In this document: positions 7,400 to 59,617 of the stretch, piece by piece | Numbering within the stretch: position 1 is the stretch's first letter | Layout of the letters: each line of letters starts with the position of its first letter | Source: Botryllus schlosseri | Lineage: Eukaryota | DNA: 64,000 bases | Reading direction: 5' to 3' | Assembly (NCBI GenBank): GCA_051294905.1 | Contig: CM119372.1 | Location: 27,220,001 to 27,284,000, forward strand | Notes under the pieces: model-generated | Told to the model about the DNA's origin: nothing | Seen by the model: the letters and a program-made list of their open reading frames with translations, nothing else | The model's database searches: none | Translations under genes and position numbers: made by a program

Positions 7400-7760
7400 C
7401 AGGCGGGATGGTGGCTTATACAGCAATTAACTTCTCACTGCACGTAATCCTATCCGAGTACCGCTAGAGTATTACTACAAGTAAGCCTTTACACCAGAAG
7501 ACCAAAACCTCGCAACAAGCTCTCGACGCTGATTGCAGGATGAGCTGCTCAATCTAGACACGTCCGCACACCTCGGCGGTCAGACGCGAATGATCGGTAT
7601 AGAACTGCGTTGGTTTTAAAGGTGTTACATCATGAAATGTCTGACGAAATTTGGTATGGTGTATTTTCATATTGTCCTACAACTGCGTACCAAGTTTCAC
7701 GGTGGGGATTAGCGTGATAAAAGGTAGTTTTTCGCTCTTTTTTTTTTTTATTTTTTCTTA

Positions 7761-29196: not shown

Positions 29197-32100
29197 CAGT
29201 GGTTCTTAACCTTTTTTCCTCCAGCGCCCCCTTTCAAAGATTATCGTGCTCCAGCGCCCCCCAACCCCATATTGTAAGGAAGGTAATAAAGACAATGAGT
29301 AAGAGGGAGGGCCGTAACAGCACTTCGTCAACCCCCTAAAAACGATTGCCTTTCGCACCCATAGCGTGATAAATAAAACTTCTGAGGGCTTGGCCCCCAA
29401 AAACCCCGTAGCGTGATTTCGATGGTCAGCAAAGTTTGTGTGGCCTGGTTGCCCTATGTGCCAAAATTTTCTATAATGCATGAATGAATAGGTGGTAATT
29501 ACATATATACAAGGCCGTAACAGCACTTCGTCAGCCCCCCCCCCAAAACCTTCATCTTGGGCCCCCCATAGGCTGATAAACCTAACATCTGGGGGGCTTC
29601 GCCCCCCAGACCTCCCTCAGCCAGTGCGCCGTTTCCCGCTACTTATCCTCTACATTGGCTGTCCATTCTGTGTGTCAGTTTTTCTCGCCTGAACGCGCGA
29701 AGCGCAAGAAATTTTTATAATTCGATGACTGAATCGGTCAATATGATCAGGAATTGCATATATATTGCTGTTAGTTTTTACCCTATTTCTGCTGACGTAA
29801 TCGGATTTACCGGTAGAGCTGAGTGAGGAGTGTTTGAAAAGGTAGGAACCCTCAATAATAATTAAACATCGCCGGGTGTATACCCGTTGCCAAGAACGAA
29901 ACAACACTTCGTCACGCCCCCATCCCCCCCAAAATACCTTGAGTCCTGGGCTTCCATAAGGTGATAAACCCGCCCCCATCACGTTGTTCGCTTTTTCAAC
30001 GAAATTATAGGGGTACCGTTTCGAGAGCCAGCGAGCCAGGTGCGCAAATTTTTGATAAGTCATGATAAATCGGTCAATAAGGTCGGTAATTGCATATATA
30101 TTGTTATGAATTTATTGTCCTATCTACTCATATTTACCTGGATAGCTAAGTGAGGTGTCTTCGAAACTGTTGAGTCCGTAAATAATAATTAAACATATTC
30201 GGGTGGGTGGACCCGTTGGTATGACTTCGTTACATGATGTTATTTCGAGACCTCCTGTCTATCAAAAAATATAGAATCGGCCAAACGTACTAAACTAAAA
30301 GCTCACACGATTTCAAATTGGTATTTCTTCGCTGCCATATAATTTTTCCCTGCGGGATGGTATTTGTCTTGTGAGATTCAGATTGCCAAGACAGAAACAT
30401 TCGGCGCCAATCAATTAAACCTATGTGTATTTTGTATGCCTATATTTAACGAAGTTTTCGGTCATTATAAGGGCAGTCCCTTTCGGCCAAGGTTTTCTCG
30501 CCGGCGATCGTTCTGGCACACTTCTTGGAGTCGCATATTACATGGCCTAAAACTTTATGTCTTGGTGCGTCGTGGCGCGGCAATAGCCAACGCCGATATG
30601 CCCATTTCTATAAATGTTGCGTATTTTTTCTTCGGGGAAGAGTACCCAATAATCAAGATATTTGGCAACCCGAAATCGCGTCCCGCGCGAAAAATTTTTG
30701 ATAAAGTTCCACAAATTTCCAAAAAATACTCTATAATTTATGCTAATTCACGAAATAATTTTGGGCCTCCTTCGAGCTCGCCCCCCCCCCCAATTGGGGG
30801 GTTTGGGGTGCGGCAGTTACGGCCCTGCATATACATGTCGCTCTAAACTTTTAATCCTCTCAGCCCACGTAATCAGATTTACCAGTAGCGCTGAGTGAGC
30901 TGTTGTATTGGAAAATAAAAGGCACGTAATTGCTAATTAAACATATTCGGGCGTGCCCGTAGGTACAATTAATTCGTTACCAGGGCCGTAACAGCACTTC
31001 ATCAGCCCCCCTACCAAAAAACGTTGGTCTTGGGCCCCCCATAGGGTGATAAACCAAACTTCTGGGTTGCTTCGCTCCAAGACCCCCCTCGGCTATCCGC
31101 TATTTGCTGATACTGGTCATCTACATTGGGTGTCGATCTACTGAGCCAGCTATTCTCGCCTAGACGCGCGAAACGCGAAAAATTTCACTAATTATTGATT
31201 GAATTGGTCAATATGATCGGGAATCGCATATATATTGATATCGATTTTTATCCTCTCTCTGCTCACGTAAACAGATTTACCGTTAGAGCTGAGTGATGTG
31301 TGATTGAAAAGGTAGGACTCCTTCAGTAATAATTATGCATCTTCGGGCGTATACCCGTTGTCAGGAACGAAACGACACTTCGTAGGGCCCCCCGAAAAAA
31401 CTTGGGTCTTGGGCTCCCATAGGGTGATAAACCGACCGCCCCCCATCACGTTGTTCGCTTTTGCCACGAAATCAGCTGTATTGTTTAGCGAGCCAGTGCG
31501 AAGCGCGAAAATGTTCGATAATTCATGATAAAATCGGTCAATAAGATCGGGAATTGCATATATAGTGCTATCAATTTCTTGTCCTCTCTGCTCACGTTAC
31601 CAGATTTACCGGTAGAGCTGAGTGAGGTGCAATGTTCCCTCTAAGCTGCGCACGTGCGCAGTGCTGACACGGTCTCTGTGCACAGAAAATCTACGTTGCG
31701 CATAACAAATCCGAAGTTATGACCTTTCTTTAGTCGTTACGCACTGCTGTCCAAGGGTCTGCGCAGTGAGTTGGTGATTGTGCGCAGACTCGTCAAAACG
31801 TAGAGGGAACATTGTTAGGTGTCTTGGAAACTGTAGGGGCCGTAACTAATAATTAAACCTATTCGGGCGGGTGGACCCGTTGGTATGACTTCGTTGCATG
31901 ATGTTATTTCGTGACCTCCTGTCTGCTATATCAAAAAATATAGAATCGCCCAACAGGGATATCGCCCAACAGGGATATCTAGTTCTATATATCCCTGTCG
32001 CCCAATCGTATTAAACTAAAAGACTAACACGATTTCAAATTGGTATTTCTTCACTGGCATATAATTTTTCTCAGCCAGATGGAATTCATCTTCTGAGGTT

Positions 32101-32396
32101 CAGATTGCCAAGACAGGAACATTCGGTGCCAGTCATTTAGGCGCATATGGACAATTAAACGTATATGTCTTTTGTAGGCTGTATATAACGAAGTTTTTGG
32201 TGTTAATTCGCTCTAAATACTCATTAAGGATATGTCCTACTACTGCATCATCTGCTGCGAAGCCATTTTTTCCAGCGTCCCCCCATATCGCCCCCCTGAG
32301 CCCAGCGCCCCCCATATCGCCCCCTGAGCGTTTACGCCCCCTTCAAAATCGCCAGCGCCCCTTGGGGGGCGCTGGAGGCAAGGTTAAGAACCATGG
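29197..32396. mobile_element. hAT non-autonomous element (family C, 3.2 kb) with internal tandem modules
   Basis: Ends CAGTGGTTCTTAACC...GGTTAAGAACCATGG; perfect TSD GTATACAC. A shorter, inverted sister copy lies at 55843-57718. Confidence 0.9.
31630..31814. mobile_element. 185-bp MITE inside family C; also present, inverted, at ~56424-56609
   Basis: TIRs CAATGTTCCCTCTA...TAGAGGGAACATTG interrupt the module sequence GAGCTGAGTGAGGTG|TCTTGG, with a duplicated T(G/T)AGGTG. Confidence 0.8.
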
Positions 32397-35300
32397 GTAT
32401 ACACTATGTATACAGGAATGAAGTGGAACATAGGTCATGAAATGGGCCATCTGTAATGTGAGCTCTGGTGATTGCTACTCGCTAGGGTTTGCAATAGATT
32501 TATCCACGGGCCGGATGAAATCATCTGGCCTGTCAGGATTGTGTTTTACAGCACTGCTATACAGTTAGGTCGGCGCGGCTATCTGTTTATGTGCTTTAAT
32601 CAAGTTCGAGACAACATTTTTTTCCCCCAACTTTCGCCCAAAAAGCACTGATCTTGGGCCCACCATAGGATAGTCGATGTACCTTGTTGGGCACTTCCTA
32701 TATGCATTAGGCTGTTAAATTTTATGTATGAATTCTGTCAACAATATTGATTCTTCGATATATTAGGCTCCTATAAAATGCACCAGCAGGTTGCACATCC
32801 GGTGATTTCCAACCTTTTTTGCTCGCGACCTCATTTCCCACTTGAAAATGTTCCGTGGCAAAGCTCAAAACTTGATAAGCTGATTACTAAAAAAATTCCA
32901 TATTGACCGATTCAAGCATGAATTACATAAATTTGTCGCTCTTCGCGCGATTAGAACTAACGGTACATGAAATAGGGTATAGCTGATATGTAGCGACAAA
33001 AAGCCCACTGGCTGAGGGGGCTCTGGGGTTTGGTTTATCGCCCTATTGGGCGAAAGAACAACATTTTTTTCGGGGTGGGGGGTGGGGTGGGGTCTGACGA
33101 AGTGCTGTTTGTCGGTTCCCAATATTTGGGGGGCGATGAACGGTGTGGAGCTTCAAAAGGGGGCGATGAGTCGAAAAAGGTTGGGAACCACTGCTCTACG
33201 GTCTATTCTTGTGCAACAGCTTCCGCTTTTACTTTTGGCATAGACATCTCTTCTGCAACATCTTTCATTGAAAACAGATGACACTGCCTCTCTCTGATAT
33301 TGATATTGATACTTTCACTATCCTCGTCGTACTTCAAGAGACGAAATTAGGTCCATGTTTAGTTCAGTCCCATAGTAAAGCATAAAGCAACAAAACAGTT
33401 TTGGGTCGAGTTATCTTTATCGCCCCTAGTGTTCAAAATGAAGTGGAAATGTCCCATTATAGTTATCATATTGGCATATTGACTGTTTTAAATAACCTGA
33501 AAGTCCGGGAAAATGTCGTGCCAAGAACCTTTAATCACTGTTGCGTTTGGGTGGTTCAGCAAAGACGATGCCACAGTTCGATAATTGAACAAGCTTTCGG
33601 CGGTGTTTGCGCAGGAGTGTTGAATAGTGAAGATTGGAGTACGCTGATTCCAATAATTACCGTTGGATTTCAATTGTCGACGCCTGGGATCCCCAATCGG
33701 CCTCATTTGACGATCTAATCATTGATCGGCTGAAGACTGCCAAACAAGGTTTGATGTTTTTCCGAGGCCCCGGATTTTAGAGGCAGCGTTAGCTTTTGAT
33801 CTTCGAATACCATTCGAAATGATACACTTGAACCGGTATATCAGATATATTTGTACCATTTCTTTTTCCGGTATAGATGACAAAGTCTGTCTAACGAAAA
33901 ATCCGATAATACGGGTATGTCGCAGCATACGAATGCCGCAATATACTGCTGTCGCACATTCAATACCGTCATTATTTAGCCTAAATAATGAGCAGTTGGT
34001 CACATTTGTCCTGTTTAATCCGAGATAGTCCCGTGTTTACGGGATTAGGGTTGAAGCAAGTGCGGTACCAATGCACCACGGACCACCGACTGAAGACCGC
34101 GCAGTCGATCGTGTGAACACAATGAATTCATCATTTCGTGTCAAAATATGTCATTTTGACCAATAACAATTTGAAGTCCCATTCTTGTACCACTACCCGA
34201 TCTTGTGACGAGACGCCACTGGTATATCAAATAGGGATGGTGTGAAACTCTGAAAGTTTCAGGTTCGTGTGAATGCGAACCTTTTTGAAAGGTTCTGTGT
34301 GAACGCGAAAGGGAACCTCATGTCGTCACCGCCTCACTTGCCTCCCCAGACCCCACATCACTGGATTGATGTACCTTAAGCTGGCAAATTGGATGGGTGG
34401 ATAAATCGAATGATAAATCAAACGAGCTCAGGTATACTAACGACGCATCATTGTGGACTTTATTGATAACATCAGCAAATGTGCATTCGTTATTTTGCAA
34501 GTAAGAAGCGATATCCTTGATATCTGTTAAGATGACAAACTGAATCAGGGATACCCAACCTGCGGCCCACCAGGTCGCTAGTAATTTTTAATCCAAGTAG
34601 TATTTTGAACTTATATTCTTGGCCTTTAAAATGTATCAGTCATCATCTCTCCGTCCATGCACCTTTTTAATTCTCGTGCGTGATTTATGACGAAATGAAG
34701 CTTCTTGCGCGATAATGCCTCCAGATACTGGTTGAATGAGGATATATATAGAGTGCTGGATGTCAGTTACGACATTTGTTTTGCTGTGTTGGTTGACAGT
34801 TGTTATTTTTTAAATGTATCTTTTTGCTGCGACTTTTGTTAATATTAAGTGCAATAAAAACTTGAACTATTACCTATAGGCTCAATATGATTCGTTTCTT
34901 GGCAAATTTTGCGATTTTAAATATTCTTCCAAGTTCAACATTGAAAAAGCAAATTAATATTTTTGGATGTAGGCTATTCGTTGAGAAGATGGATTATAAT
35001 TTTGTTACCTCCGTCTATCGTAAGGCTGTATTCAGTAGCGATAAATTCCATCGGATTCATTTTGTCGTAAAATCAATTTGACAAGAACGTTGGTACACCG
35101 GACCCCAATTGTCACCCTATGGAGCACCGAAGACCATCGTTTTTGGTGGGGAGGAGATGACGAAGTGCTGTTTCGGTACTGCCGCTATGTACCGGGAATG
35201 TCCATTATTAATCAACAATGTTTGATATTATCCATCAACGGACAGCTCAACAGTCGGCAAAAGAACCTGAAATCGTGGTTCACGTTGTGCTGTGGGAGTT

Positions 35301-41454: not shown

Positions 41455-42642
41455 CAGTGGTTCCCAACGTGGGCGATATAGCCCCCCAGGGGGCGATTTG
41501 GCGGTCTAGGGGGGCGAAAATGACGAAGGGGGCGATAGGGGGGCGAAAACGAAAGAAGGGGGCGATAAGGGGCGAAAACAACGAAGGGGGCGATAGGGGG
41601 GCGTTGGCACGTTAAAACGGCTATATTGGAGTCGGGACCGTAACTACCGCACCCCAAATCCCCCAATTGGGAGTGGAGGGCCCGAAATCGAAGGAAGCCC
41701 AATTTATTTCGTGAATTAACATGAATGATCGAGTAATTTTTTAGAAATTCATGCGACTTTTTCAAAAGTTTTCGCGCTGCGCGCGATTTAATATTGTCAT
41801 GTATCTTGATGTTGGGGTCCCCATCACCCAACAAAAATACGCATGATTTATGGAAATGGGAGACTTCGGCGTCGGCCATTACTGCGCCACGACGCACCAA
41901 GACATATGAAGTTAGAGGCCATGAAACATGCGACTCCGAGAAGTGTGCCAGAACGATCATCAGCGTGAAGACCTAGTCCGAAAGGAATGCCCTTGTGCTG
42001 ACCGAAAACTTCGATATATATACAATATATGTTTAACTGTCCATTGGCGCCTCAATGGCTGGCGTCGAATGTTCCTGTCCTGGCGACCTTAACCCTACAG
42101 GACAAATGCCATACCGCAAGGAAAAAATTATTTGACAGTAAAGAAATACCAATATGAAATCATGTGCGTCTTTTAGTTTGGTACGTTTTGACGATTTCCA
42201 TATCTTCTGACATAGCAGATATCGGAGGTCACGAAATATTATCATGTAAAGAAGTCAATATAAAAACGATTCCGTCGAAGATGTTTAATTATTATTTAGG
42301 GGTCATACCTTTTCCAACATATCATACCGACCATATTGACCGATTCCAACATGAATTATATAAATTTGTCGCGCTTCGCGCGTTTAGGCGAAATACGGTG
42401 ACTCAACAAACAATACATGAAATAGGGTGGGCCTATAGCTGATATGTAGCGACAAAAAGCCCACTGGCTAAGGGGGATCTGGGGTTTGGTTTATCACCAT
42501 ATGGGGCCAAAGATCAACGTTTTTTTTCGGGGGGGGGGGGGGGTGACGAAGTGCTGTTTTTCGGTTCCCGATATTTTGGGGGCGATGATCGGTGTGGAGC
42601 TTCAAAAGGGGGCGATGAGTCGAAAAAGATTGGGAACCACTG
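41455..42642. mobile_element. hAT non-autonomous element, family A (uninterrupted copy)
   Basis: TIRs CAGTGGTTCCCAA...TTGGGAACCACTG, GGGGCGA subterminal repeats, perfect TSD GGGTAAAC. Confidence 0.92.
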
Positions 42643-42655
42643 GGGTAAACCCATC

Positions 42656-43239
42656 CAGGGTTGTAACCAAGTCAGAAGGCTCCAAGTCACAAGTCAATCT
42701 CACTTTTATAGTTATGACTCTAGTCAAGTCGAGTCATTCCAATTCACCACCGAGTCAAGTCCGAGTCCAAGTCAGCGAGCAGAGGGTCGAGTCCGAGTCA
42801 TGGAATTATGACTCGAGTCCGAGTCCAAGTCATTGTGTAGACTGCTCAGTTTCCACTTAAAGTCTTGGTAAACCCACTTTTTATAACTCTGTTTGGTGAT
42901 ATCGAATGTTTCGCATTTATAATATACCATTTTCCTCACTTTTAGCAGTTTCTGGTCGCATATTCAAGTACGAGTACCAACAGACGAAATCTCAATAGTG
43001 TGTTGGCTTCGGAATTACAATGAAATGTTGGTCTTGGCCTTCTCAGTCTCGAGTCAATGACTTGGTTCGAGTCATGAGCAATGACTCGAGTCCAAGTCGA
43101 GTCAATACACAGATTGACTCGAGTCGAGTCGAGTCATTTCCGTATTTTGAAAAATTGACTCGAGTCAAGTCGAGTCATCAGAAAATAGTGACTCGAGTCG
43201 GACTCGAGTCGATTCATGACTCGAGTCATTACAACCCTG
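42656..43239. mobile_element. GACTCGAGTC-rich hAT-type MITE, complete
   Basis: TIRs CAGGGTTGTAA...TTACAACCCTG; perfect TSD AACCCATC. Confidence 0.92.
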
Positions 43240-43456
43240 AACCCATCCTTTCAGTTTTTGCTGATCATGTCGCCGAGATTAAGGATTTTAATGAAAGTCG
43301 GTCTTAAGACAAAAGTACGAAACACTGGGTCAAGGTAGGGTGAAGTTCGGAGAAACTGCAAGCTTCGCTCAACATTAAGGCCATTTATCCTACACATTGC
43401 TTGGAAGGCAGCGATCAAGAAAATAAGCTTTGTACTATTGCATACACATTCCAGTG

Positions 43457-43736
43457 CAGTGGTTCTCAAACTAGGAGACGTGAAAGCATCAGAAGGGTGG
43501 CGCGAAGCCAAAGTTCACTGATATAACCCCAGCTAGTTGTTGCTCTGTGTATTGTCCAACTTTGATATTTCACAATTCTCTCATCAACAGCCATAATCTC
43601 CATGCAATCAAACTATTTGTTGGGCTTGCTAGCATTCCGGTTGCACTTTTTAATAGTTTGTGATATCATGATAAGTGGGCGCGAAATTGTTCACTATCAT
43701 AGAAGGAGTCAAGCCTAAAAAGTATAAGAACCACAG
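43457..43736. mobile_element. Short degenerate hAT MITE
   Basis: Ends CAGTGGTTCTCAAACT...AGTATAAGAACCACAG; no clear TSD. Confidence 0.55.
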
Positions 43737-44836
43737 TTTTAGATTCTTAATAGAAGAGCGTGGATAGGGGAACGAGGGCTAAAATGTATCATATTTAACA
43801 TAATATAACTTCCTCATTACCTAATATCAACACATTCACTGAGCAGCATTTATTACCAATGTAATTTAAAAATAAAATTAAAACACGCTGGAGAATATAG
43901 CTAAATTTTATCACTCGGCCCGCCAACGTATATATTTTTTTCATTTGGCCCACGGAGGAAAATAATTGCCCACCCCTGCCGTATAGGAGTGCCCTAAGAA
44001 CGCAAATGGTTTTGCACATGAACGGGTAAGCTGAGCTCAGATGCTAATTGATTGGTTGGTACTAGTAGTGTCTATCGGCAAATGACAACTGATATAACAG
44101 ATAGGCGCAAAGAAGAACGGAAGTCCAGTGAGTATGAAGCATCAAATTTTCATTCCGTGGAAGTATAGGGACAAAAGAAGTTTATTTCTTACTAACCTAG
44201 GAGTCGTACACCCCATGGGGTCGTTTGCCCATTTCCTAGGGTCGCGAAGGAAATAAAATACCACTGATTACTACAAGAATGACAATTACTCGGGGGCTAT
44301 CGGCGGCTCATTTCTGAAAATTTTAGACAAGGTATCAGATCAGTCGAAGCGTCATTTTGATGTGAGCCAAATGTAACGTAAGAATGGTGTCTGGCCATTA
44401 CTATGACGACTAAACGATCGGTGCATCGAAACCAATGGGAAAACTACGAGCGAGTCGGCAGCGCTATGTGTTAATAGTGTGCATTACGGTTATCCAAAAT
44501 TTGGAAAATCTTAAAAATACTCCGTGACTTGACTGTGTCTCATTCTATAGGTCATTAATAAAAAACAACAATGAACCTGAAAGAAGTATACAGGAAAGCC
44601 GTAAAGATTTGGGGCAAAGCGTTTGAAAGTAGCTGCTCAAGAATGGTCGCGCCACCGACCATAGAGCGGCGAGAAGACTAGTAATCAAATAACCACGGCT
44701 CTTGATTTGCTAATCGGCTATGCTTCAAGGATCACGGCAGCAGCAGCTTGCTGATTAGGTGTTCAAGGAGTCAGTCTGCTACCGGCGGGGATTCTGAATG
44801 CGCATTGCTGGTAGGTGGGCAGATGAGGATTTAAGA

Positions 44837-45647
44837 TTAATTCAGGAAATGTTGATGTATCGATTTGTCGGTGTTGTGAATATTCAACGAAAATCGGGGC
44901 TCATTATTGTTCATGGTTCGCATATTTGACAGTGAATATATCGCTTTTGTGCTGTTCATTGTATCGATAGCATCGACGGTATAGTTGATCGAATAACCAT
45001 GTAGTAAGACGAATACACGAGTGTTTGCGCGTTGGATCTCCAAGTCTTCCGTTGAACAAAGCCGATTTTATTGATCTTTCGTTGCAAGATTGGAGATCGT
45101 CAAAATTAATTTGTAATATAATAAGGTGTACCAAATCGCTGGTATCAAAATAAACGGCTATGATAATGTTATCGATGGATCAAAACCTGCATTATTTCTC
45201 AATATTTGTACACCGACATATTGCATGTAATGTCATACGCCTTATTCGCGCAAATACTTGGTATGGCTAAAAAAACGCGAATAAATTGATATGTGTGAAG
45301 GTATATGCATTGGTACTTTTCATGGAAGCAAACACGGGTTATGAATGAACATATTTATTTTGAATATTGATCGTTAGTTCTGGTTTACCGATTCAGAGTG
45401 AATATATTTACAAAAACTTTCTCATATTGGTTATCCGATTTTGAATGATTTCGAGTGATATGCATTGATCAATAACGAATAACACATCATATCCGTGTAC
45501 CTATCATCTGTATAGTGCTACCAAGAATACTCACAAGCATACAACCGCGAATTAATAGCACGGTGGTGAGCATGAATTCATCCATTTTCGAAGATCGTTA
45601 CCGTTACCCAAGTATCAACCAGGTAACAAAATTGTTACTTCAGACAT
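44837..45647 (-). pseudogene. Possible decayed stand-alone PIF1-like (SF1B) helicase
   Basis: ATG at 45647. In different frames but in PIF1 order: MSEVTILLPG*YLGNG (degenerate Walker A), SILGSTIQ (motif Ib G.TIH-like, ~45520), YDVLFVIDQ (Walker B-like, ~45480), RLCST...NTRV..LLHG...Y..DAID (~45060-44970). Confidence 0.3.
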
Positions 45648-46102
45648 ATTGACGCTGGAAAATAAATTCAAAGCACGAATCCGAACACGAACATAATCCA
45701 CGTATCGAAACCTGTATTACTAGCCATATTTCTAAAACATTATGTCGGTGTACAACATCACATTGTTATTGCATGCTGGTAACCGTAAAGTCATGGAGGT
45801 TGCTAATTTCGACATATTGACTCTGTGGTCGGCTAAAGCACGAACGGGGACACACACACATGTGTGATTATCTCTTACACACACCGGGACACACAGTATT
45901 CGTCGATTTCCAAAGCGTACATTTCGATAGACAAGAGTCTATTGTTATTTCATGTGGTTAACCGACGATATAGATGCGATGCTACCGACGTGGGTATACT
46001 ATGAAACCGGTTGTCGTGTATATTTTCGTTACTGCTAGTTGTAATCAATTACAAACTGTCGCTAACACAACAAATACCGAATTGATAGGTGTGGTTGTCA
46101 GA

Positions 46103-46640
46103 TTTCAAAACGAAAATGGTATTTTTACTCAGGTAAGCATCACATCTCCAAGTGAAAACGGTATTGTTACTCAGGGAAATGATAGTTTTCCAAACGAAAA
46201 TGGTTTATTACTCAGGGGAAAAATATATTTCCAGACGAAAATGGATTGTTACCCTAGGTAACGACAGATTTCCAAACGAAAATGGTTTGTTACCCAGGAA
46301 TAAGAAAGATTTTCAAGTGAAAACGGTATTGTTACCCAAGGATAAGATATATTTTTAAGTGAAAATGGTTTGTTACACAGGGACAAAATATATTTCTAAA
46401 CGGAAAGGGTTTGTTACTCAGGGAAAAAAATATATATTTCGAAACGAAAATGGTTTTGTTACTCTAGGAAACGATAGACCTACAAGTGAAAATGTATTGT
46501 TACTCTGGGTAAACGATAGATCTCCAAAAGACAATGGTATTTTTACTCAGGTAAGGGCGGACCTCCAAGGGTAAATGGTAATTTTACGCAGGTAATTGTC
46601 AGTTGTCCAAACGAAAATGATATTTTTACTTGGGTAGGTA
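46103..46640. repeat. Minisatellite, ~13 degenerate copies of a 41-42-bp unit
   Basis: Approximate consensus TTTCCAAACGAAAATGGTTTGTTACTCAGG followed by ~11 variable nt, repeated head to tail. Confidence 0.9.
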
Positions 46641-47229
46641 CCGTGTGTTCAACGCTGGTAGTGTGATTGGTCTTGTTAAACGTAGTTGTCGAGTTGTACA
46701 ATATACTTGTAAGTATACAATTACGAAGGGGAGGAAAATGAAAATGTTATTACCACTGCAGGAAGGTTGTGATATGTTGATTTGATTTGTCGGGTCAGTA
46801 ACCCTATCATTCGCATATGACAAGCAAAATCATTACCGCGTGAATACATGTAACTGACTCGCTCGGTCTCAACCAATGCAAAATAGATGGTTCGTTTTAA
46901 AACCGATACCGCGTGTTAGTCGATGCGATTTCTACCTCCGCGCATTCAGTCATGTCGAGTCCATTTTAATACGGGTCCACAGGTACGAAACACACACTAA
47001 CACCGTAAACAGAAGACGATGATTTTGATACACATTAATAAACAGATTTTCTCAACTACCTGTTCAACTAAATCGGAATTGTTGTAGAAAGTAAATAATT
47101 TTTTTGAGTTGTGTGTTTGATGAAAGTGATTGGTTACAAGTAGTAGAAGTGTGGTGGGAAAAGAAAATTTATTTTTTCTGTGTGTGACAGTTTGGGGTAA
47201 AATGAGAATAGATTCGTGGTTTTAATTGA

Positions 47230-50200
47230 ATTGCCCTGTTTTAATGTACACTTCGATATGGAGACTTGACGCTGAACAACAATTCGATTCACAAAACATA
47301 TCCATTGCAAAATTTGCCACTGGTGTGCAAAGAGTTAGGAACATTTTTAATACAGTTCCATCTACTGGTTTGTGCAAAGAGTTAGGAACATTTTTAATAC
47401 AGTTCCATCTACTGGTTGATTTGTTGTGAGGTCAGTCATGTGATGACTCGGTACTTTTCGTTAGCAAAGTAGATAGATTTTTGTGAAAGATTTGAGGACG
47501 GTAACTACAAAACATATGCACTCTGTTGTTGGAGTAGCTGATTTATTGCTATGACATTGACGGAACCCTCGGGAAGTGACTATGCTTTTCTTTCACGAAA
47601 GTTTACGTGGCTCCGCTGTAATAAATTTGTGTTAACTAAACTCGGATGGATACCGCAATTGTGTTGGACTTACATAGGGTATTCACATACTGTACACATA
47701 CAAACTTTAGTGTAAACACTCTGATGTTTCTGTAATTACTAGTTCTGTGTTGTAATATTTGATTATTAAGATACATGAACATCCATTCAGACAATAAAGT
47801 ATTTGCGATATCGAAACAGTTTGAAAGCGTCAACAATCATTGCGCATGTTCGTAGCATGGGAATATCGAATATTTTCGTGTGTCTGAATATCTTTCATAT
47901 ACATTTAGTGTGAAATGAGTGGCGTGGAAAAATAATCAGTATCCTACAAAAGTGAAACTTGTTGTGTTCGATTGCATATTTTTTATCATTGTTCATTGTG
48001 GTTTTGCAAGACGGGTGAGTTTACATCTAAATGTATTAAGCGTAGTACCTCAATTTGACTCATTTGAAAATCGACAACGTGAAAACAATACCGGTCACTA
48101 GAGTAACAGTATCAATATGAGTGGTATATTATTTTTTCGCGATATGCAACCAGCCTTCTAAGCTAAACTTTTCAAAAACTCATCATGTCATACAAAAGAT
48201 GGTTGTTACGAATTCGAAACTATAGTACTTCGATTATCACGACGAATGAAATTAAGAACAACGTAGTATTTCGAAGTGGTATGTTCACCAATCACTAAAT
48301 GATGAAGATATCAAATTACGCATGCAACTCTGGCAGTTTAACGATACAGTTACAAGTTGGATGTAATCTTGATTTACAGGTGACCGCTTAATGTTGTAAT
48401 GCTCAACCACGCCAGTGTGTTTATTGCAAAGTATTTGACGCAAACAATATATTGATGAACGCTAACCCATCGGAATCGCAATCCAAGATAGTGAAATTGT
48501 TTTCTGCTACACCAATATAATTTGTAATAGTTTACTTATGTGTATACCACAATACAATATTTCATTTGTGTTAAATGTTTGACGTCATTCGATAACTGGA
48601 TTACTACGGCGTTATGTGACTGATCGAGGTGCGAGAATTGTAATGATGCGATGAAGCTGTGTACAACCAACTATTCTGTAGCTGTGAAACGGCGGTATGG
48701 AAACGCGCGAATAATCCTAGCTGAAAATCGGTGATATTCAGGTTACGTATGAATCAACAGATCGCAAGGACTGAACAAGTTTCCAATAAACTATTTATCG
48801 CACATATGACTTTTGGAAATCGATATATATTCTAAAATGCTTGCTGACCCCGTAAGACACAACATAAAATTCATATCAAGCAAGGTCTTTTCACGCTTTG
48901 AGTTTTGTGATGACATTTCACCCTATAGAAATGAACTTGTATCAATACTATAACACCCATCGTATTTACTATTTTCGGTGCTGGTTGCATTCTGATTTCC
49001 TTGGCGACATGCGTTCTACAAATAATTCCAGTATGCCGAGTTAGGATGCGTTTGATAAACATCATACAAATTCTGTAATGCATATAGAGGTGAGCAATGG
49101 ATTAATCCCGAATCAGGAATATTTCATAACGAATCTGGTTTTCAACGCGGGGTCTTGATTAATGTAAAAGATTGCTAAACATCCAGACAGCTAAAATTGA
49201 ATTCGAACGCTCGTTTACTTTTAGATTAACAACTTATTTGAGTTTAATAAACCCCGGCCGTACTTGAATACGTCGATCGTTAATGCGTTAGGTAGATTTA
49301 TACGTCGAGATGGTAATAATGTAGTTTCTAACATGTATATTGTACAACTCTTCCGTAACTTCGTTACAACGCATTCGTAATGAATTCGTACACATTTTTT
49401 AAAAACCACAAGTAAAGGATGAATGATTTGTTTTATTCAAATAAAAAGAAATACTTTTGTTTCGCTGTCTAGAAATGTAATTTGTATGAATGACATAGAC
49501 AACAATGAATCTATTTCTACAATCTGGAATGCTGCTTTTACCAGACAGTCTGTCGACTTGTAGTCTAATGTTCACAGACGTGTTAATCAAGATGAACGGT
49601 TTATACAATCGCAGCGGTGTTTTTTGTTATACGACTGTTATCATCAAACAAATATGTGGTTTGTGTCAAGTCTTACGATTAGGCATTATATTTCGTGGTT
49701 GGAATAAAACGAAAGTTTGTTGTTATGAGTTCAATAATATTCTCTATCGATAAATGCGAATAATACGACAGCTTGATGCAGTTTTGTGGCTAAGTCAAGT
49801 CAGTGATCATGTTTGCGTTGATTTCGAGAATGAGCATGACGGGTTAGCTGATAATTTAGTTAATGTGGTAATAACTATGTCGTAAAGAGTTGCTGACATT
49901 CAAATATCTTTTACGGTGTAATAGACGGATTCACTTGTGGTAATTTAATTCTCAGTCTCTGATCGGACGAGTATTCAAATCTCGTATACTCGAAATATAA
50001 TATGTTCATGTCAAGTCGTATATGCACCGATTAGTAAATTTAGTAACCTTTGTCTTACAGAATAGTAACGAGCTTTACAGTTGAATAAAACAATCGGTCA
50101 TATGCGTACAGTCAGGATGAATTATTCAAGTTTGCAAGTTGTAGTGATATAATCAAGTAAGTCAAAATCAAATTTATGACTTGTGAATGTTGTTTGTGAA

Positions 50201-50700
50201 TAAGTCCTTTGAGTGTGGTAAGATATTGAAACGTCAGGATGTACTAGCGCTTTCATTTCCCTAAACTCAGTTGCAACAAAAAATAATTATAGACCAATGA
50301 TAAGTTGTAAGTTTTAACGTTCTGTTTCAAATCATTGTGTGAATAATCCGACAAACACGCCATCAACATTCCTAATATTATTGATATAAGACATTACCAT
50401 GTTCACAGACTTTAAATAATATTATCCTGATGTCAAGGCGGAAATTAATATATTCGGATACAATTCAGCTTCACTTGTAGCGCGAGTGAGATTTCGAGTT
50501 GGTAAATTAACACATTGATTGAATATTATCATGATTCTTATGATGCAACCAAGGTCAATCTTATTCTAGAAGCGTGAAAACATATAGCGGATGTGTGGAA
50601 AATCGAAAACGGAGGTGAAAGTTGGTCAAGTCAAGTAATATTCAGTTGCAAAAAGATCAAACTCCTAAAAAGATTAGAGTTATACCGACAATTGACAATT
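47230..50700 (-). pseudogene. Decayed protein-primed family B DNA polymerase (pPolB); boundaries approximate
   Basis: Across stops and frameshifts, in the expected order: FDFD (~50170, ExoI-like); HDH*L...SSC (~49810, endonuclease VII-like); ITFLDS (~49470); K...YE...KL...LETTLLP (~49400-49310); FYINQD (~49160, ExoIII-like); FGINP (~49105); YGVSKHFRIY (~48850); SYAINSL (~48800, D.NSLY-like motif A); LL*DTDYF (~47940, YxDTDS-like motif C). Motif B is not clearly recognisable. Confidence 0.55.
47324..47417. repeat. Perfect 47-bp tandem duplication
   Basis: TGTGCAAAGAGTTAGGAACATTTTTAATACAGTTCCATCTACTGGTT occurs twice. Confidence 0.95.
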
Positions 50701-51665
50701 TGTTGGTATTCAAGTCGTCGCCGTTGTGGTTCTGTTATTCGTTACCCTTGTGAGCGATCGTAGGATTTTACAATTATTTCACACCTATTTGAGTATGCGG
50801 TAACCTCACAAAGGATTAGGGTTAGGACGGAAATAAGTGGCAATTTGTTGCTATTCAAGTTACCGACACTGGCGGTTCTGTTATTCGTTACTTATTAAAT
50901 CATACCAGCGAAATCAAGTTCTGTGACGCACTGATTACTAAAATTTCACCGCGTGAGCGATGACACCAAGCCGTGAAAGATGACTATGTCTGAGGTGTTA
51001 TCTTGTGGGCGATCGTAGGATTTTACAAATATTTCACACCTTTTTGAAGTGTTAGTATGTGACCGCGGCTATGTTGGTATTCGAGTCGCCGTCTACGCCG
51101 GCTCTGTGGTAAACTAATTACCAAAATATTACCTTGCACGTGATTCCTAGATTTAGCAAACTATTTCACATCCTTTTTTGCTAAAAGTACGACATGCCGC
51201 CCGCAGTCTATACCCGAAAGTACGAATCACCGCCGCGGCCATAAGAATAACGATATATTGAAGTCACAATCACCGTAAACGTTGGGATTACCTCAAATTG
51301 GCCATATATAATAATTTGGGATATACACATTAACAAAGGACCAATCACGTGATCAATATACCTGATACATATTCAACACCATGCGAGAGATGCCTATACC
51401 CACAAGTACAACAAGTTTCCTAGGCACCGTGTGAGAGATGCCTATACCTGGAATCGTCACCGTGCGAGAGATGCCTTTACCTGAAAGTACGACCCACCAA
51501 CACGAGTTTTCGAGGCACCGTGTGAGCGATCCCTATACCGAAAAGGGATGGGCCCATGGTGCGAGAGGGCCCATAAGACACACTGGCACCGTGCGAGCGG
51601 AAGGGGGGTCAAAAGGGTCACCGCGCCAACACGAGTTTCGAGGCACCGTGTGAGCGGGCCCATAA
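50697..51665. repeat. Subterminal repeat arrays next to the putative Polinton end
   Basis: TTGTTGGTATTCAAGT...GGTTCTGTTATTCGTTAC and CTTGTG.GCGATCGTAGGATTTTACAA.TATTTCACACC each occur 2-3 times in 50697-51175. CACCGTG(C/T)GAG(A/C)G occurs about 7 times and CCAACACGAGTTT(T)CGAGGCACCGTGTGAGCG twice in 51377-51660. Confidence 0.85.
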
Positions 51666-52728
51666 GCCGCAATGGCGCGTCACGACCGCATTCCGATTAC
51701 TTATGTAGCCTATAGGTCGCATTCCAGTGTATAGTCGGAATGAACTACCTGGAGGCCAAATCACCACGTTAAACTGCCCATGTTTATTTCCGGTGAACTC
51801 TGGACTAATCTATTCACTAATATTGGCTTCTATGCGGACCGAAATCGTGAGTAGTCATGTTACGAATAGCCACAGGGATTCGTTTTTGAGTCACGCGATG
51901 TGCAAAATTTTTTCATATTCTTGAGTGAATTTCGTAATTAATATTAGTATAGTTTCTCATGCTGCTATCAAATATCTATCCTTTCTTAGCCCATGTGATC
52001 AAATTCACCGGAAGTTATTAATGCTGTGCTGCATCTTGCGGTGCGCCAATTGTTATTAGTTTCCTTTGTTGCTTGCTGTTATTTCTTGACAACCCCTAAG
52101 AATTGTCGATATGGTGGAGATATATTAGATTCACCCAAACGTAGGCCTATCAAAAACAAATTTCCTTCGCGATGAGGAGACCATGACTTCAAATTAGTAT
52201 TTCTTTTCGGGGCGCATAATTTTCCTCTACTGTTCGCATCTGTACTGTGGGGCTCAGATTACAAAGGACAACAATATTAAAATCAAAAATCAACTCGCAT
52301 TGGACCGCACGTTGCGCGAAGAAAATTTTAGGAATAATTCAAACCTCTCCCTAATTAGGAAGTCAATTCATGAATTCAATTTTCATATTGACGGTCCCCA
52401 GCACATCCTAATTGAAATAAGTGTCGACGGCCGCATAATTTTCCTTTTACTGCCGGAGACTGGCCACCCCTGTACTAAAGAGTCGATATTGGCGTTAGTA
52501 AGACACGCTACCTGCTGGACAACTATGACCTCGTGAAGCTTGATCTTTTAGGGAGCCTAAAGTCGTTTTCTAAGCGTCTTAGTCTTGGCGGTTGTGGACC
52601 ATTGCACGTCAAGGCAATATGTTCAATTGCTCATTCACAGCAGCAAATTATCCCTCGATGGAATGATATCACCAACGCCGAAGGCGTGTCAGCTAGTGAT
52701 GCTAGGCACAGGAGAATAGCTTACTCTG

Positions 52729-52730
<2 letters not shown>

Positions 52731-52789
<59 letters not shown>

Positions 52790-52793
52790 CCAA
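52731..52793 (+). repeat. (CAA)n microsatellite, probably a retroposon 3' tail
   Basis: About 20 CAA units; the SINE at 55007-55306 ends in a similar CAA tail. Confidence 0.85.
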
Positions 52794-53086
52794 CATATTT
52801 GAACTGAAATCAATTTCAGCATTTCAAAATGCTTTACTAAGCGTTCTTCCAAAATTTCAAATCAGTTCGCGGGCCGTGTGTTGGTGACCCCTGGTATGGT
52901 ATGGTGTTGAATTGCTAATTTCACTATGGTACTAAAAATACGTTTTACTGAAGATAGCAGGGGTTGCTGTTTATAAAAGAGGTGTTTTAAAACACTCATA
53001 TATGCCAAAGATGTTTTAACATTCCAAGATAACACCGTTTTGTAGTTTGTTCAATTGTGTAAATAATGTCGAATAAACATGTAGTA

Positions 53087-54426
53087 CAGTGGTCGGGAAC
53101 CTTTTTCGCCCGAAGAGCCATATTGACCCTATATTTTCCAATTCAACTGCTAAAGATCCATACATGTCAATAAACTCTTACGTCACAATTGAAAAATCGT
53201 GACGTCATGATAGCACAAATTCGAAATTACTACATGAGATTTGTCATTTGCACCGTATTTTCATGTTGGTTGCCTTATTTGAGTAATGAGTATGCGAAAC
53301 TTGAGTTACGTAGATATTTGGCAAGTTATATATTTTAAATTGTATTGCACTGAGAGGGATATAATATTTTTCGAAGCTTAAGACAAATAACATTTAGATT
53401 TCCGACAGACTTAGACAGCAGTAAAAGAATTAATCTACTTTTTGCACGCTTTTTACAGTTAGTGCGTCTTTTGGTGGTGTTGCATGGTATTCCTGATGGC
53501 TTTGTAGTTTGGTTGTTGATAATTGTTGAGACTAAGCTTCATACAAAATTTGAGACTTTCGTCAGTGATACGAGATTGTAGGATCCTCTTGATGCTATTC
53601 CTAAATGTGAGGCCATATGATGACATACGTAGCTGGATCCAAACATGGTCACATCCCCGGTCTACTAGATTTTGAACATTTTTACTACCAAAATGACGCA
53701 ACCTGCCAAATTATTGTTTAAAAATAAAGCGTGAAAGGAGAGGTGAGGCACAGCCGGGCCATAACTTACCTGTGATAGGACAATGAATCCTAAATATCAT
53801 AGAATTTATAATAACTGATATTATTCGAATGTAATTGTCGCACAGATTCCGATTCTACTTTTCAATTCCTAAAATATTAGGCGGTAACATAACGTTGAGC
53901 CACACGCTTACATTTTAACAGCGACTACAAAGCTACCTTATCAATCAAGAACGTGGCTAGCTATGGCGTTGTTTGTCATTTGAATTTGAAATTGTGAACT
54001 TCTCTTCCACGGCAGTTCGTTTCTGGTCGTAGATCAGGAAGACGATGTGTATTTGAAAACTGCATTGTGATACATGCGCCGCAATGTCTTCTCGTTAGTC
54101 AATCAACGTATCGTGCAATCCAAGATTTCGTGGTGGGTATATCGAATTCGGGAATGATACTATGGTCGACGGCGTGACAGCAACTTGAATTTAGGAGTTT
54201 TGAAAAAGGGTTCTTAGCCCCTAATCCTGAATACGCCACTGTATTAACCTCTCAAATACATGTTTATACTGCCACAAAAATAATTATACAGGTAGCGATG
54301 AAGATTTAATAACAAGTTGCTGCAATATTGACAAACTAGGCACAAAAATAAAAATTTCGCAAAGAGCCATATCTTATGCCCAAAAGAGCCATATATGGCT
54401 CGCGAGCCATCGGTTCCCGACCACTG
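53087..54426 (-). mobile_element. Deletion derivative of a hAT (SPIN/GTF2IRD2-type) transposon retaining the transposase C-terminus (~53459-53660)
   Basis: TIRs CAGTGGTCGGGAACC...GGTTCCCGACCACTG; perfect TSD ATGTAGTA. The minus strand reads VTMFGSSYVC and, after a frameshift, SRITDESLKFCMKL...QHHQKTH*. Confidence 0.88.
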
Positions 54427-55006
54427 ATGTAGTATGAGCCTTCCTACGGCATGTACTATAAACATAGTCGACGTAAATGGAATGGAATGGTTGGAAGCCG
54501 CGACATGCCCGTCGGCTCAAGGTTATACCCCGTATAATCACATACACTGGAACGGAATGGATGTTCTGATGATGATGACCGCCAATCGTAAAAGTGCTGC
54601 ATGACGATGTAGTCCTGGTCGAAGATATTCCCTGATCTGTGTAAGACAGGCGTCAGAAACCCTTTAATTCAGAGGAGGCATATTCGCCACACATTCAATT
54701 GTTTTTCTTGAGAATCCCTATAACAATGCCCATCCACTGTGATGTCACAGTAAAAGATTCGTGACGTCATCGCTAAAAACAGAGCGAAGCAAAAAAATAT
54801 TAAATATTTATTTCTACACGTGCTATTTAAAAAAATGTTACCTTGCATACCACTGAAGCTGAGTCTGTACCTCTTCATCGTTGCATTCCGCGTTACGCAT
54901 TAGAACGTATAGTTCTCAATATATATATAATTGGTTCTATCACATCCACGGTTTGTTACGGAATCGACGAATCATCAAATTAGCCTAATGACGAGACTTA
55001 ATGTAT

Positions 55007-55306
55007 GTTGTTGTTGTTGTTGTTGCTGCTGTTGCTGTTGTTAGTAGTATTCATGGTGTTTTTCGACTGCAATGGTCATTTACGCAAGACCGATATTCTT
55101 TATTTTGATTCCGTATCTGTCGACTTGTAACACGACCCACTTGTAGTCTTTCTAAGACACAGCTAACTCGGATTGGGCAGCGAGGAGGCGCCTATAGATA
55201 AACCTCCAACACTTGGACAGAAATTCTGGAATCAACCTTGGTCGGACTCGAACCCGCAACCGATTGGTGTTGTGACTGTGGAAACTACCACTACGCTATC
55301 TCGCTC
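55007..55306 (-). mobile_element. tRNA-derived SINE with a (CAA/CAG)n tail
   Basis: The minus strand reads GAGCGAGATAGCGTAGTGG (A box) ... GGGTTCGAGTCC (B box). The head GAGCGAGATAG is shared with the 21881 SINE. The tail lies at 55007-55042. Confidence 0.7.
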
Positions 55307-55434
55307 AATATCTGTATCTGAATATAGGATGGATTGAAAAATGTAAAATTTTGAATTTCAAAACGGAGACTTGATATGTGGTCCCTAATATAAGAAAAAA
55401 ATATTTTCTATGATAATTTTGGGCTCGTGCGCCC

Positions 55435-58400
55435 TAGGGTTGTCCATAATTTGGAAAATCTTGAAATTTATGCATATCCCTGTCTCATTCTATAGATTAT
55501 AGATTAAAAAAACGCCAATGAACCTGCAATAAGCTCACAGGAAAGTCGTTAACATTTGTCTAAATGCGTTTGAAAGTAGCTGCCGTACAGTGGGCGTGTC
55601 AGCGACCATAGAACGGCAAGCAGACTAGTAATCACGAAATCACGTCTCTTGATTGGTTAATCAGTTATGCTTGAATGATCCCGACCCCAGTGGCTTGCTG
55701 ATTATGTGCTTCTACTAGTACAAGATAATCGCTAATGGCAAGGATTCAGTAAGCGCATTGTACGTTGGGGATATAATAATAAAACGAGAAACCTGGTAAT
55801 TGAATGTTTTAGTGTTAAAACTAGATAACGATATGTTTAGAGCAGTGGCTCTCAACCTTGCCTCCAGCGCCCCCCAAGGGGCGCTGGCGATTTTGAAGGT
55901 TACGGAAAGGCTCAGGGGGCGATATGGAGGCGCTGGGCTCAGGGGGGCGGTATGGGGGGCGCTGGAGAAAAATGGCTTCGCAGTAGATGATGTGGTGGTA
56001 GGACATATCCTTAATGAGTATTCAGAGAAAATTAACACCGAAAACTTCGTTATATATAGCCTACAAAAGACATATAGGTTCAATTGTCCATGGGCGCCTA
56101 AATGACTGGCACCGAATGTTCCTGTCTTGGCAATCTGAACCTCAGAAGAAGAATTCCATCTGGCAGGGAAAAATTATATGCCAGTGAACAAATACCAATT
56201 TGAAATCGTGTGCGTCTTTTAGTTTAGTACGATTGGGTGACAGGGATATCTAAAACTAGATATTCCTGTTTGGCGATATCCCTGTTGGGCGATTCTATAT
56301 TTTTTGATATAGCAGACAGGCGGTCACGAAATAACATCATGCAACGAAGTCATACCAACGGGTTCGCCCGCCCGAATATGTTTCATTTTTATTTACGGAC
56401 CCTACAGTTTCCAAGACACCTCACAATGTTCGCTCTGCGTTTTGACGAGTCCGTGCACACTCAACAACTCACTGCGCAAGACCCTTGGACAACAGTGCGT
56501 AACGACTAAAAAAAGGTCATAACTTCGGATCTGTTGTGCGCAACGTAGATTTTCTGGGCGCAGGGACCGTGTCAGCACTGCGCACATGCGCAGCTTAGAG
56601 TGAACATTGAACCTCATTCAGCTCTACCGGTAAATCTGGTAACGTGAGCAGAGAGAACAAGAAATTGATAGCAATATAAATGCAATTCCTGATCTTACTG
56701 ACCGATTTTGTCATGAATTATCGAAAGTTTTCGCGCTTCGCACTGGCTCGCTAAACAGTACAGCTGATTTCGTGGCAAAAGCGAACAACGTGATGGGGGC
56801 GGTCGGTTTATCACCCTATGGGAGCCCAAGACCCAAATTTTTTTCGGGGGGCCTGTCGAAGTGCCGTTTCGTTACTGCCAGCGGGTATACGCCAGAAGAT
56901 GTATAATTATTATTGAGGGGTCCTACCTTTTAAATCACGCATCGCTCAGCTCTACCGGTAAATCTGTTTACGTGGGCAGAGAGAGGATAAAAATTGATAT
57001 CAATATACATGCAATTCCCGATCATATTGACCAATTCAATCATTAATTATTGAAATTTTTCGCGCTTCGCGCGTCTAGGCGAGAATAGCTGGCTCAGTAA
57101 ATGGACACCCAATTTAGATGACTAGTATCAGCAAATAGCGGAGAGCCGAAGGGGGGTCTGGGGGCGAGGCCCCCCGGAAGGTTGGTTTATCACCCGAAGG
57201 GGGGCCCAAGATCAACGTTTTTTTTGGGGGGGGGGCTGACGAAGTGCTGTTACGGCCCTGGTAACGAATTAATTGTACCTACGGGCACGCCCGAATATGT
57301 TTAATTATTAATTACTTGCCCTTTATTTTGCCATACAACAGCTTACTCAGCGCTGCTGGTAAATCTGAGTACGTGGGCTGAGAGGATAAAAAGTTTATAG
57401 CGACTTATATATGTAAATACCACCTATTCATTCATGCATTATAGAAAATTTTGGTACCTAGGGCGACCAGGCCACACAAACTTTGCTGACCATCGAAATC
57501 ACGCTACGGGGTTCTTGGGGGCGGAGCCCTCAGAAGTTTGGTTTATCACGCTATGGGTGCGCAAGGCAATCGTTTTTAGGGGGGTTGACGAAGTGCTATT
57601 ACGGCCATTCCTCTTACTCTTTGTCTTTATTACATTCCTTACAATATGAGGTTGGGGGGCGCTGGAGCACGATAATTTTTGACAGGGGGCGCTGGAGAAA
57701 AAAGGTTAAGAACCACTGGTTTAGAGCAGCAATAGCCTCTTGCCGGCATGACAGAGGTGAAACAGCGAATGATTGTGAAGTTATAGAACTAAGTATAGTT
57801 CCGAGAAATACCTATCTGATATGCTTGAGATTACGCCAAGTGGTACTGCTTTTCGGGGTGCAGGTAAGGTATATTAGTCATCGCCAAACTGGTGCAGCAC
57901 CCCATGTCAGATGGATTCTGGACACAATCCTGTATGGTCAGAAGATATGTGGGCCGACCAGGTAGCTTACATTGGAACTCTGAAGAAGTGTAACTACCAC
58001 ACCGCTTCATTACATTCTTTTTATGTCCATGTCTGGTTTGATTCAAGCAGTTTGATCCAAGAATCATTAGCGACATGCCTAGCAATGCAAGCAAGCTGTC
58101 TTTATGCTGGTCCTACCAGCATAGTCTATGCTTATCCTTAGACCTCTTTCCGCGCCATCAATGAGGACGTTGACAGCACTTGTGGGCATATTTAATATGC
58201 TGCAAGAATATGTCAAGTGCCAAGCATAAATGACTGATTCATCAAGCCCTTACAGCATTCAAGACTTCAATTATATACCACGACAAGAGCCTAATAAGAT
58301 CAAACAAAGTATAGTGTCAATGTCAAGCTTAATCAAGGATCAGGATAATCAAGGATAATCCCCGAATTATCAAAGAAAAACTCAAATAATTCAACTTCTA

Positions 58401-58635: not shown

Positions 58636-59617
58636 TGTTTTTTTTAACAGCCCTACTGGGCATGTTCTGAATTAATCTCAAATCATTACCTGTTGACCAA
58701 CATACGACGCGCTTACAAATACATCGCCGTTAGCAGTCTCCTTGACCAGCTGATCAGCAAGCCGCCACCTTCGTGATCATTGAAGCATAGTAGATTAGGC
58801 AATCAAACGCCGTGATTTCGTGATTACTAGTCTGCTTGCCGCTTGCTGTTCTATGGTCGCTGACACGCCCACTCTACGGCAGCTACTTTCAAACGCATTT
58901 AGACAAATGTTAACGACTTTCCTGTGAGCTTATTGCAGGTTCATTGACGTTTTTTTTTATCGATAATCTATAGAAGGAGACAGGGATCAACCATATAAAT
59001 CACAGATATAAGGTATCTTGTTTGTTAACCAGCGAAAGTAGTGATCTGAATTTTTGATAGATTGCCTGCTCGTGCTCGTAGGCCTACTTATACTTTACCA
59101 GGTAGATCTAGGCACGCTCCTTGAAGATTTGGACCTTGCAGCACCCTCTAAAACTTGAGATAACGACTTGCAATTTTGCCACAGGAGAACACCTCCTAAA
59201 ACACCAACTATTTTGTTGGCAGTCAGTTAATTTCCATAGTTGCACGTGGTCGCTCTCTGTTTACAATTAAAGGTTCTCGAGTTAACCAAGAAACAGCTGC
59301 AATGCTCGATCCTCTGCCGCCAGAAAACAACTCTACACTCTGGAAATATTTCCTTTGTTTTGGTTTTCGGTTACTTTATAGCAGAATTTGTCTTGATTAT
59401 ACCGCAACGGGGCTTTGTTATATGCAATTCGCGACGTTGTGTACTTGTCCTCATACTACCTCACAACGACAAATTTATTTCTCTATTTTGAGTTTGGTAT
59501 AAACCGCAATTAACGGCGTTCGCTCCTGACGAGAGTTGGTCGAAAAACTCCGAGTGGAATATGAATATATTATATATTGAAAATCTCTAATTCTCAAGCT
59601 AATTCTGTCACAGAAAG

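Follow-up and report, generated by a model that had tools for sequence, protein, structure and literature searches.

The stretch from 44,852 to 51,701 of the analysed window (64 kb of Botryllus schlosseri DNA) is a distinct and real unit derived from a mobile element, and it belongs to a high-copy dispersed repeat with many diverged copies in the genome. It is best read, tentatively, as what remains, with one end and no genes, of a large non-autonomous, high-copy element with Maverick/Polinton-type ends. The polymerase gene that the preliminary description had placed in it is indistinguishable from chance, and the block is therefore to be regarded as ordinary repeat DNA. The features are listed in Table 1.

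Table 1. Features of the block and its borders (window positions).
Feature	Position	Strand	Remarks
Flanking repeat, unrelated to the block	44,477-44,851		Block ends against it; copies at 55,427-55,760 and 58,661-58,982
Whole unit	44,852-51,701	minus	Non-coding, from a high-copy dispersed element; apparently with one end only
Low-copy innermost module	45,005-46,006		Summed depth 7-29 in run X8
41-bp tandem array	46,100-46,630		~12.7 units, 73% matches; length differs among genomic copies
Exact 47-bp tandem duplication	47,324-47,417		Recent, or an assembly artefact
Polymerase-like motif track of the preliminary description	47,943-50,172	minus	Indistinguishable from chance
Low-copy internal module	48,512-49,513		Run X8 summed depth 8-36 (high-copy bins: 194-1,681)
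Second tier of degenerate sub-repeats	50,668-51,177	minus	Self-similar pairs; joint 51,129>50,935
GC-rich subterminal sub-repeat cluster	51,358-51,676	minus	Unit number varies among genomic copies
Inverted repeat (11 bp) and direct repeat (8 bp) straddling the candidate end	51,689-51,742		Arms 51,689-51,699 and 51,732-51,742
AGTAAT, candidate terminus	51,696-51,701	minus	Agrees with the Maverick end motif (AGT)2 in five of six letters

The block is 6.85 kb long. The start proposed earlier, 44,837, lies 15 bases inside the flanking repeat; the right end is approximate and falls between ~51,660 and ~51,910. The interval 44,852-55,426 is the longest in the window to lack dispersed within-window repeats, and in a more sensitive search of the window flank-type repeats resumed at ~51,910; no second copy of the block was found elsewhere in the 64 kb. 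The earlier observation of about 7 kb free of MITEs holds in the sense that no dispersed within-window repeat is present, but at the genome level the block is itself a high-copy repeat, as judged by reads. Its CpG content (observed/expected 1.30, compared with 1.02 outside the block) and three depth ratios set it apart. The block contains no ORF longer than 95 codons, stop-codon depletion is absent from it, and it shows no clear three-base periodicity.

Most of the block is highly repeated in the genome according to the reads. The ratio of depth in run X2 to that in run X1 had a median of 1.16 in 13 inside bins versus 3.26 in 15 flank bins, with slightly overlapping ranges (0.55-2.35 inside, 2.1-4.6 outside); the X2/X1 and X8/X1 contrasts both gave a Mann-Whitney p of ~1e-5, although they were noticed post hoc and computed on neighbouring bins. 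Across 46.0-48.5 and 49.5-51.5 kb the summed depth in run X8 was 194-1,681, a sum that does not represent a copy number, and several single contigs listed for these bins had a depth of 2-3 in the same run. In all three contig runs the depth was far above that of a single contig and was accompanied by many variant letters and array-length joints. The view of the block as one old insertion overlooks this: most of it has very many genomic relatives. In the RNA run, 6% of which was read, the depth in the block was at most ~5 reads per direction, a level that shows neither expression nor silence.

The depth differs ~100-fold between modules, and among the contig pieces listed none spans more than ~600 bases. 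Such an alternation would also suit a mosaic, in which several unrelated repeats lie within older low-copy DNA and do not form a single element. This origin is improbable, however: the low X2/X1 ratio and the raised CpG are common to high- and low-copy bins, which is what a single family whose modules vary would show.

The GC-rich subterminal arrays of the preliminary description were confirmed at the right end, where a 13-mer matched five times in 51,423-51,654 versus 0.01 expected, the pattern having been derived from the repeat itself. Go-back and skip joints in run X2 (51,539>51,425, 51,547>51,497, 51,648>51,384 and 51,450-51,501) mark this cluster as variable. In the second tier, a 46-bp pair at 50,747 and 51,002 is 93% alike, and 50,668-50,745 matches 50,810-50,891 at 76%. 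The 41-bp array also has joints, at 46,181>46,485, 46,342>46,309 and 46,554>46,357. Foldback, Mutator-like, CACTA/CMC and Helitron/Helentron-like transposons commonly carry subterminal repeats and internal minisatellite arrays, and a large non-autonomous derivative of one of these groups, moved by a transposase or a Rep/helicase supplied in trans, would share the high copy level and could account for a weak plus-strand hairpin at 51,720-51,742, just beyond 51,701. Helitrons and Helentrons are recognised by a Rep/helicase, or by TC...hairpin-CTRR ends at an A/T site. Assignment to any of these groups nevertheless appears rather unlikely, as the Pfam search of the six frames of the block at E up to 10 returned no family, hence no transposase or helicase domain, the hairpin folds no better than shuffles, and neither a CACTA-type end nor a Helitron end at an A/T site was seen by eye.

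As the preliminary description had it, AGTAAT begins the minus strand at 51,701, and this AGT-type start lies near the point where the sub-repeats stop. A vertebrate Maverick survey gives the end motifs as (AGT)2 or (AG)3 (PMC8097293). Hexamers starting with AG and within one mismatch of these motifs are present in 26.5% of 60-nt stretches of the same strand, and AGTAAT is weak evidence for a Maverick end. In the bin holding the candidate end (51,518-52,018) the depth ratio, 3.5, resembles that of the flanks and the X1 depth is 13-fold below that of the preceding bin, and 51,701 is absent among the loose ends listed in the read data. For the terminal 352 bases, too, folding was at the level of shuffles (z -0.54). 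Neither the last 400 bases nor the whole block has an inverted match in the window that could serve as the partner of a terminal inverted repeat, which is compatible with truncation. No 6-bp target-site duplication was found in the window either, as the 6-mer flanking 51,701 precedes no AG start to the left.

Compared with Mavericks as portrayed in that survey (PMC8097293), the block is alike in its AGT-type start and in the sub-repeats near one end; it differs in the lack of a detectable polymerase, integrase, ATPase, protease or capsid gene, in an end motif of five letters out of six, and in having no second terminal inverted repeat and no 6-bp duplication. The survey states that most vertebrate copies are degraded and far outnumber intact ones, 2,166 of them being without discernible terminal inverted repeats. 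With non-autonomous DNA transposons in general, as defined in PMC6431247, the block shares many copies and cis-acting ends without enzymes, while it is unusually long and is built of modules of very different abundance.

A polymerase was the central claim of the preliminary description, which listed nine motifs in the order expected of pPolB. The order is as described, and six of the nine lie in one frame. Six are literally present: FDFD (50,172), FLDS (49,475), Y...D (49,166), FGINP (49,112), G.S..F..Y (48,851) and DTD (47,943). The other three are not: HDH at 49,811 is followed by a stop and the Cys is absent at its place, K..YE..KL..T.LP matches near 49,400 only with looser spacing, and only INSL of Y.INSL is found (48,798). 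Y...D is commonplace, with seven occurrences in 47-51 kb and 83 on the strand. Nor does the chain of motifs rise above chance. With the group-1-type profile, 21, 6 and 59 of 300 shuffles did as well, the best collinear-chain result (6 of 300) being one of nine tests; for unbiased block chains, 36, 48 and 150 of 150 shuffles matched the block.

Sequence and profile searches gave the same picture. The polymerase sets comprised two from viral contigs, 120 relatives for each of three seeds, 48 ORFs from metagenome loci and 120 mostly phage-sized polymerase ORFs; tblastn and hmmsearch with these sets found nothing collinear in the block. The minus frame carrying six of the nine motifs (48,102-51,701) had no phmmer match among 1.84 billion proteins. 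In local frameshift-aware alignment, the minus-strand scores of four Polinton polymerase profiles were 37-49, values that shuffles also gave, versus at least 128 for 35 of 36 scores at natural control loci; several of these controls belong to the training set, and they have decayed less than the proposed fossil would have, so that they do not fix a detection limit. All 360 single polymerases tried in this way averaged 42.8, against 43.8 on the shuffle. Whole-core alignment in six settings gave z values of 2.35, -0.72, 0.9, 0.16, -0.62 and 0.13; it was reached by 6, 3, 3 and 31 of 200 shuffles with one profile and by 56 of 100 with the fourth. The former alignment starts at ~49,507 and bypasses both the sites and the register of the proposed motifs. 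The two marginal results, the motif chain and the whole-core alignment, do not hold up once the multiplicity of tests is taken into account.

Other element genes were equally elusive. Integrase, packaging ATPase, protease and capsid were not detected by Pfam in six frames, by PHROGs (only three chance-level matches, E 0.11-0.26) or by comparison with ORFs from 244 polymerase-bearing loci, where 592 non-redundant ORFs of 789 scored like shuffles against the block. Pfam found no family in 30.0-44.8 kb, Rfam none in the whole window, and scans of viral contigs for the motifs and for the sub-repeats yielded nothing. A literature search, too limited to show that no such paper exists, found nothing treating Polinton, endonuclease VII and pPolB jointly.

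A genuine pPolB gene running inward from the right end, too decayed to be detected or derived from an unsampled polymerase clade, could still explain why the motifs stand in the right order with six in one frame, why the region's best motif-A-like 8-mer lies near 48,830, and why FLDS, FGINP and G.S..F..Y all fall inside the low-copy internal module, which other copies may have deleted. The inward direction would also fit the vertebrate Mavericks, whose polymerase module is likewise directed towards the centre (PMC8097293). We nevertheless assign little probability to such a gene, given the shuffle-level outcome of the sequence, profile, frameshift-aware and coding-signature tests alike; no residual ORF signature accompanies the motifs. 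A decayed pPolB carrying an endonuclease VII insert is not supported, no collinear match having been obtained at the sensitivity used.

What stands of the proposed Polinton arm is the mobile-element unit, the sub-repeats at its right end, the lack of a partner end in the window and a plausible link to Mavericks; the polymerase is unsupported. The reading as a non-autonomous, Maverick-ended remnant is favoured by the distinct CpG and depth ratios of the unit, its high copy level, outer-end sub-repeat arrays that vary between copies, the lack of ORFs above 95 codons and the AGT-type start. Against it stand the missing inverted partner and 6-bp duplication, the ~100-fold depth differences between modules, the inverted repeat that straddles the candidate end and the flank-like depth in the end bin. 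Such an element would have retained only a cis-acting end, consisting of the end motif and the subterminal repeats, while intact Mavericks at other genomic sites would have provided the polymerase and integrase to copy and insert it; the present copy would have lost its other end after insertion and would now be inert.

A variant of this origin, in which an old arm of a giant palindromic Maverick satellite survives as the block and keeps its parent's decayed polymerase in a module mostly deleted from younger copies, is highly improbable. No long inverted repeat in the window involves the block, so that a mirror-image arm is missing there, and a search of the literature by title, too narrow to show that none has been published, found no description of palindromic non-autonomous Mavericks.

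As a caution, ordered short motifs picked by eye in AT-rich DNA failed here to beat shuffles. As it stands, the block is of little significance, since truncated copies of large repeats are common. If, however, the low-copy module at 48.5-49.5 kb were the parental polymerase, a gene-less high-copy family would be tied to a gene-bearing Maverick ancestor; and the palindromic variant, if true, would supply a missing link, in that gene-less palindromes would have arisen when an intact Maverick underwent fold-back at its polymerase end.

The segment at 44,852–51,701 is discrete, non-coding and one-ended; its terminal arrays vary, and it has many relatives elsewhere in the genome. In a self-comparison of the window, the stretch 44,852–55,426 was found to be without a dispersed copy inside the window, and a more sensitive repeat search showed flank-type repeats resuming from about 51,910. 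The segment has a GC content of 37% and a CpG observed/expected ratio of 1.30, compared with 1.02 in the rest of the window, and contains no ORF longer than 95 codons. The subterminal arrays mentioned in the preliminary description are indeed present, as two tiers of sub-repeats at the right end.

Genomic copies were visible through read and contig depth only, for which four of the 24 listed runs were aligned, at 80% likeness, to positions 42,500–57,500. Summed depth does not equal copy number and is taken here only as a sign that copies are numerous and that modules differ about 100-fold. For run X8 it was 194–1,681 over 46.0–48.5 and 49.5–51.5 kb and just 7–36 over 45.0–46.0 and 48.5–49.5 kb; several listed contigs of this run had a depth of 2–3. 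The same pattern of high and low modules was seen in runs X1 and X2, and the segment is a high-copy repeat whose modules lie about 100-fold apart in depth. Both arrays contain backward and skipping joints, which show that unit numbers vary among copies. The median X2/X1 depth ratio was 1.16 in 13 inside bins versus 3.26 in 15 flank bins (two edge bins excluded), a contrast spotted post hoc among adjacent, non-independent bins, and the X8/X1 ratio behaved alike. The distinct unit proposed earlier is borne out by the lack of an in-window copy, the raised CpG and the X2/X1 contrast, which agrees well with the proposed boundaries; that the segment is a patchwork seems improbable. Relative to the flanking repeats, its depth is approximately three times higher in X1 than in X2, which may reflect a sample copy-number difference or a technical effect.

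The window contains a LINE and a Bcl-2-family frame among many dispersed repeats, which marks the DNA as eukaryotic. The longer ORF of the LINE encodes endonuclease, reverse transcriptase and RNase H domains. The Bcl-2-family frame could represent a single host-gene exon, with a splice site possibly located after its GGW motif. Two inverted copies of a composite repeat, 86–94% alike in pieces and ∼24–28 kb apart, flank the segment on either side and look like members of the common repeat family of the window.

Features of the segment and its surroundings (window coordinates)
Feature	Position	Strand	Details
Bcl-2-family frame	315–869	minus	uninterrupted, 184 aa; PF00452, E 1e-21; weak BALF1 match
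LINE, apparently intact	2,314–7,426	minus	468-codon ORF with Cys/His-rich stretch, then 1,242-codon ORF
Local tandem duplication	8,188–8,633		223 bp, 97%
Composite repeat	29,213–32,404 and 55,835–57,703		inverted copies
41-bp array	46,100–46,630		∼12.7 units
Exact tandem duplication	47,324–47,417		47 bp, 100%; inside the segment
Longer degenerate sub-repeats	50,668–51,177		second tier at right end
13-mer sub-repeat	51,423–51,654		five copies; 0.01 expected

Nine degenerate motifs of a protein-primed polymerase (pPolB) had been described over ∼3.5 kb of the minus strand. Six are literally present, the order holds, six share one frame and several spacings resemble those of real polymerases; the other three are matched only loosely. 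A true polymerase fossil, older than the tools can see or of an unsampled clade, has a low probability. Four profiles were built from retrieved polymerases of authentic Polinton type, which represent three sequence types. A motif typical of protein-primed polymerases was seen in L122–L124, contigs of a viral collection (339–733 kb). Neither tblastn nor hmmsearch with the polymerase sets and profiles yielded a collinear match in the segment. Local alignment that allowed for frameshifts gave scores of 37–49 for the minus strand, against shuffle means of 41–46 and maxima of 50–63; unaltered natural loci, in which decay has gone less far than in the proposed fossil, scored at least 128 in 35 of 36 profile–locus pairs, including cross-group ones. 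When each of the 360 retrieved polymerases was aligned by its last 900 residues, the mean score was 42.8 for the real strand versus 43.8 for a shuffle, and 592 non-redundant ORFs of polymerase-bearing loci, including integrase- and capsid-like neighbours, performed no better than shuffles. The frame with six motifs had no match among 1.84 billion proteins, a search in which one-frame homology unbroken for 300 codons would usually be expected to appear. Reading through 47,200–50,800 took at fewest 39 stops and frame changes, versus 39.2 in shuffles.

For 16 blocks picked by information content, the real chain score was reached by 36, 48 and 150 of 150 shuffles. Blocks at the previously described sites gave, in nine tests, 113, 106, 164; 20, 23, 38; and 21, 6, 59 of 300 shuffles, the best result (6/300) being one of nine at sites picked after the sequence was seen. 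A whole-core alignment reached z 2.35 in one of six settings; it starts near 49,507, outside the register of the motifs, and on repetition was equalled by 6, 3, 3 and 31 of 200 shuffles. Since the profile, single-sequence, frameshift-aware, collinearity and stop-count tests all stayed at or near shuffle level, the fossil pPolB is unsupported. That the low-copy module at 48.5–49.5 kb, the site of the best motifs, represents polymerase sequence of the parent element that younger copies have lost is very unlikely.

Vertebrate Mavericks are described in PMC8097293 as having termini (AGT)2 or (AG)3 and 6-bp duplications. The AGTAAT with which the minus strand begins at the proposed end, 51,701, matches the Maverick end motif in five of six letters, but equally good hexamers occur in 26.5% of 60-nt stretches. 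Within the window, neither an inverted partner nor a matching target duplication was found for this end. In addition, an 11-bp inverted repeat spans 51,701, the depth bin containing it is flank-like, and the position is absent from the few loose ends shown by the contig-depth data. The segment ends between about 51,660 and 51,910.

The segment differs from a Polinton in all the gene, TIR and duplication features tested and hence is not classed as one; it appears to work like a non-autonomous derivative, a kind of element defined in PMC6431247 as supplying only ends. Because of the AGT-type start and the terminal sub-repeats we lean, tentatively, to a Maverick as the helper of such an element, and regard derivation from another transposon superfamily as rather unlikely. 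The segment is a truncated high-copy repeat of an already known kind, and would represent the now inert remains of a non-autonomous element that supplied ends only.
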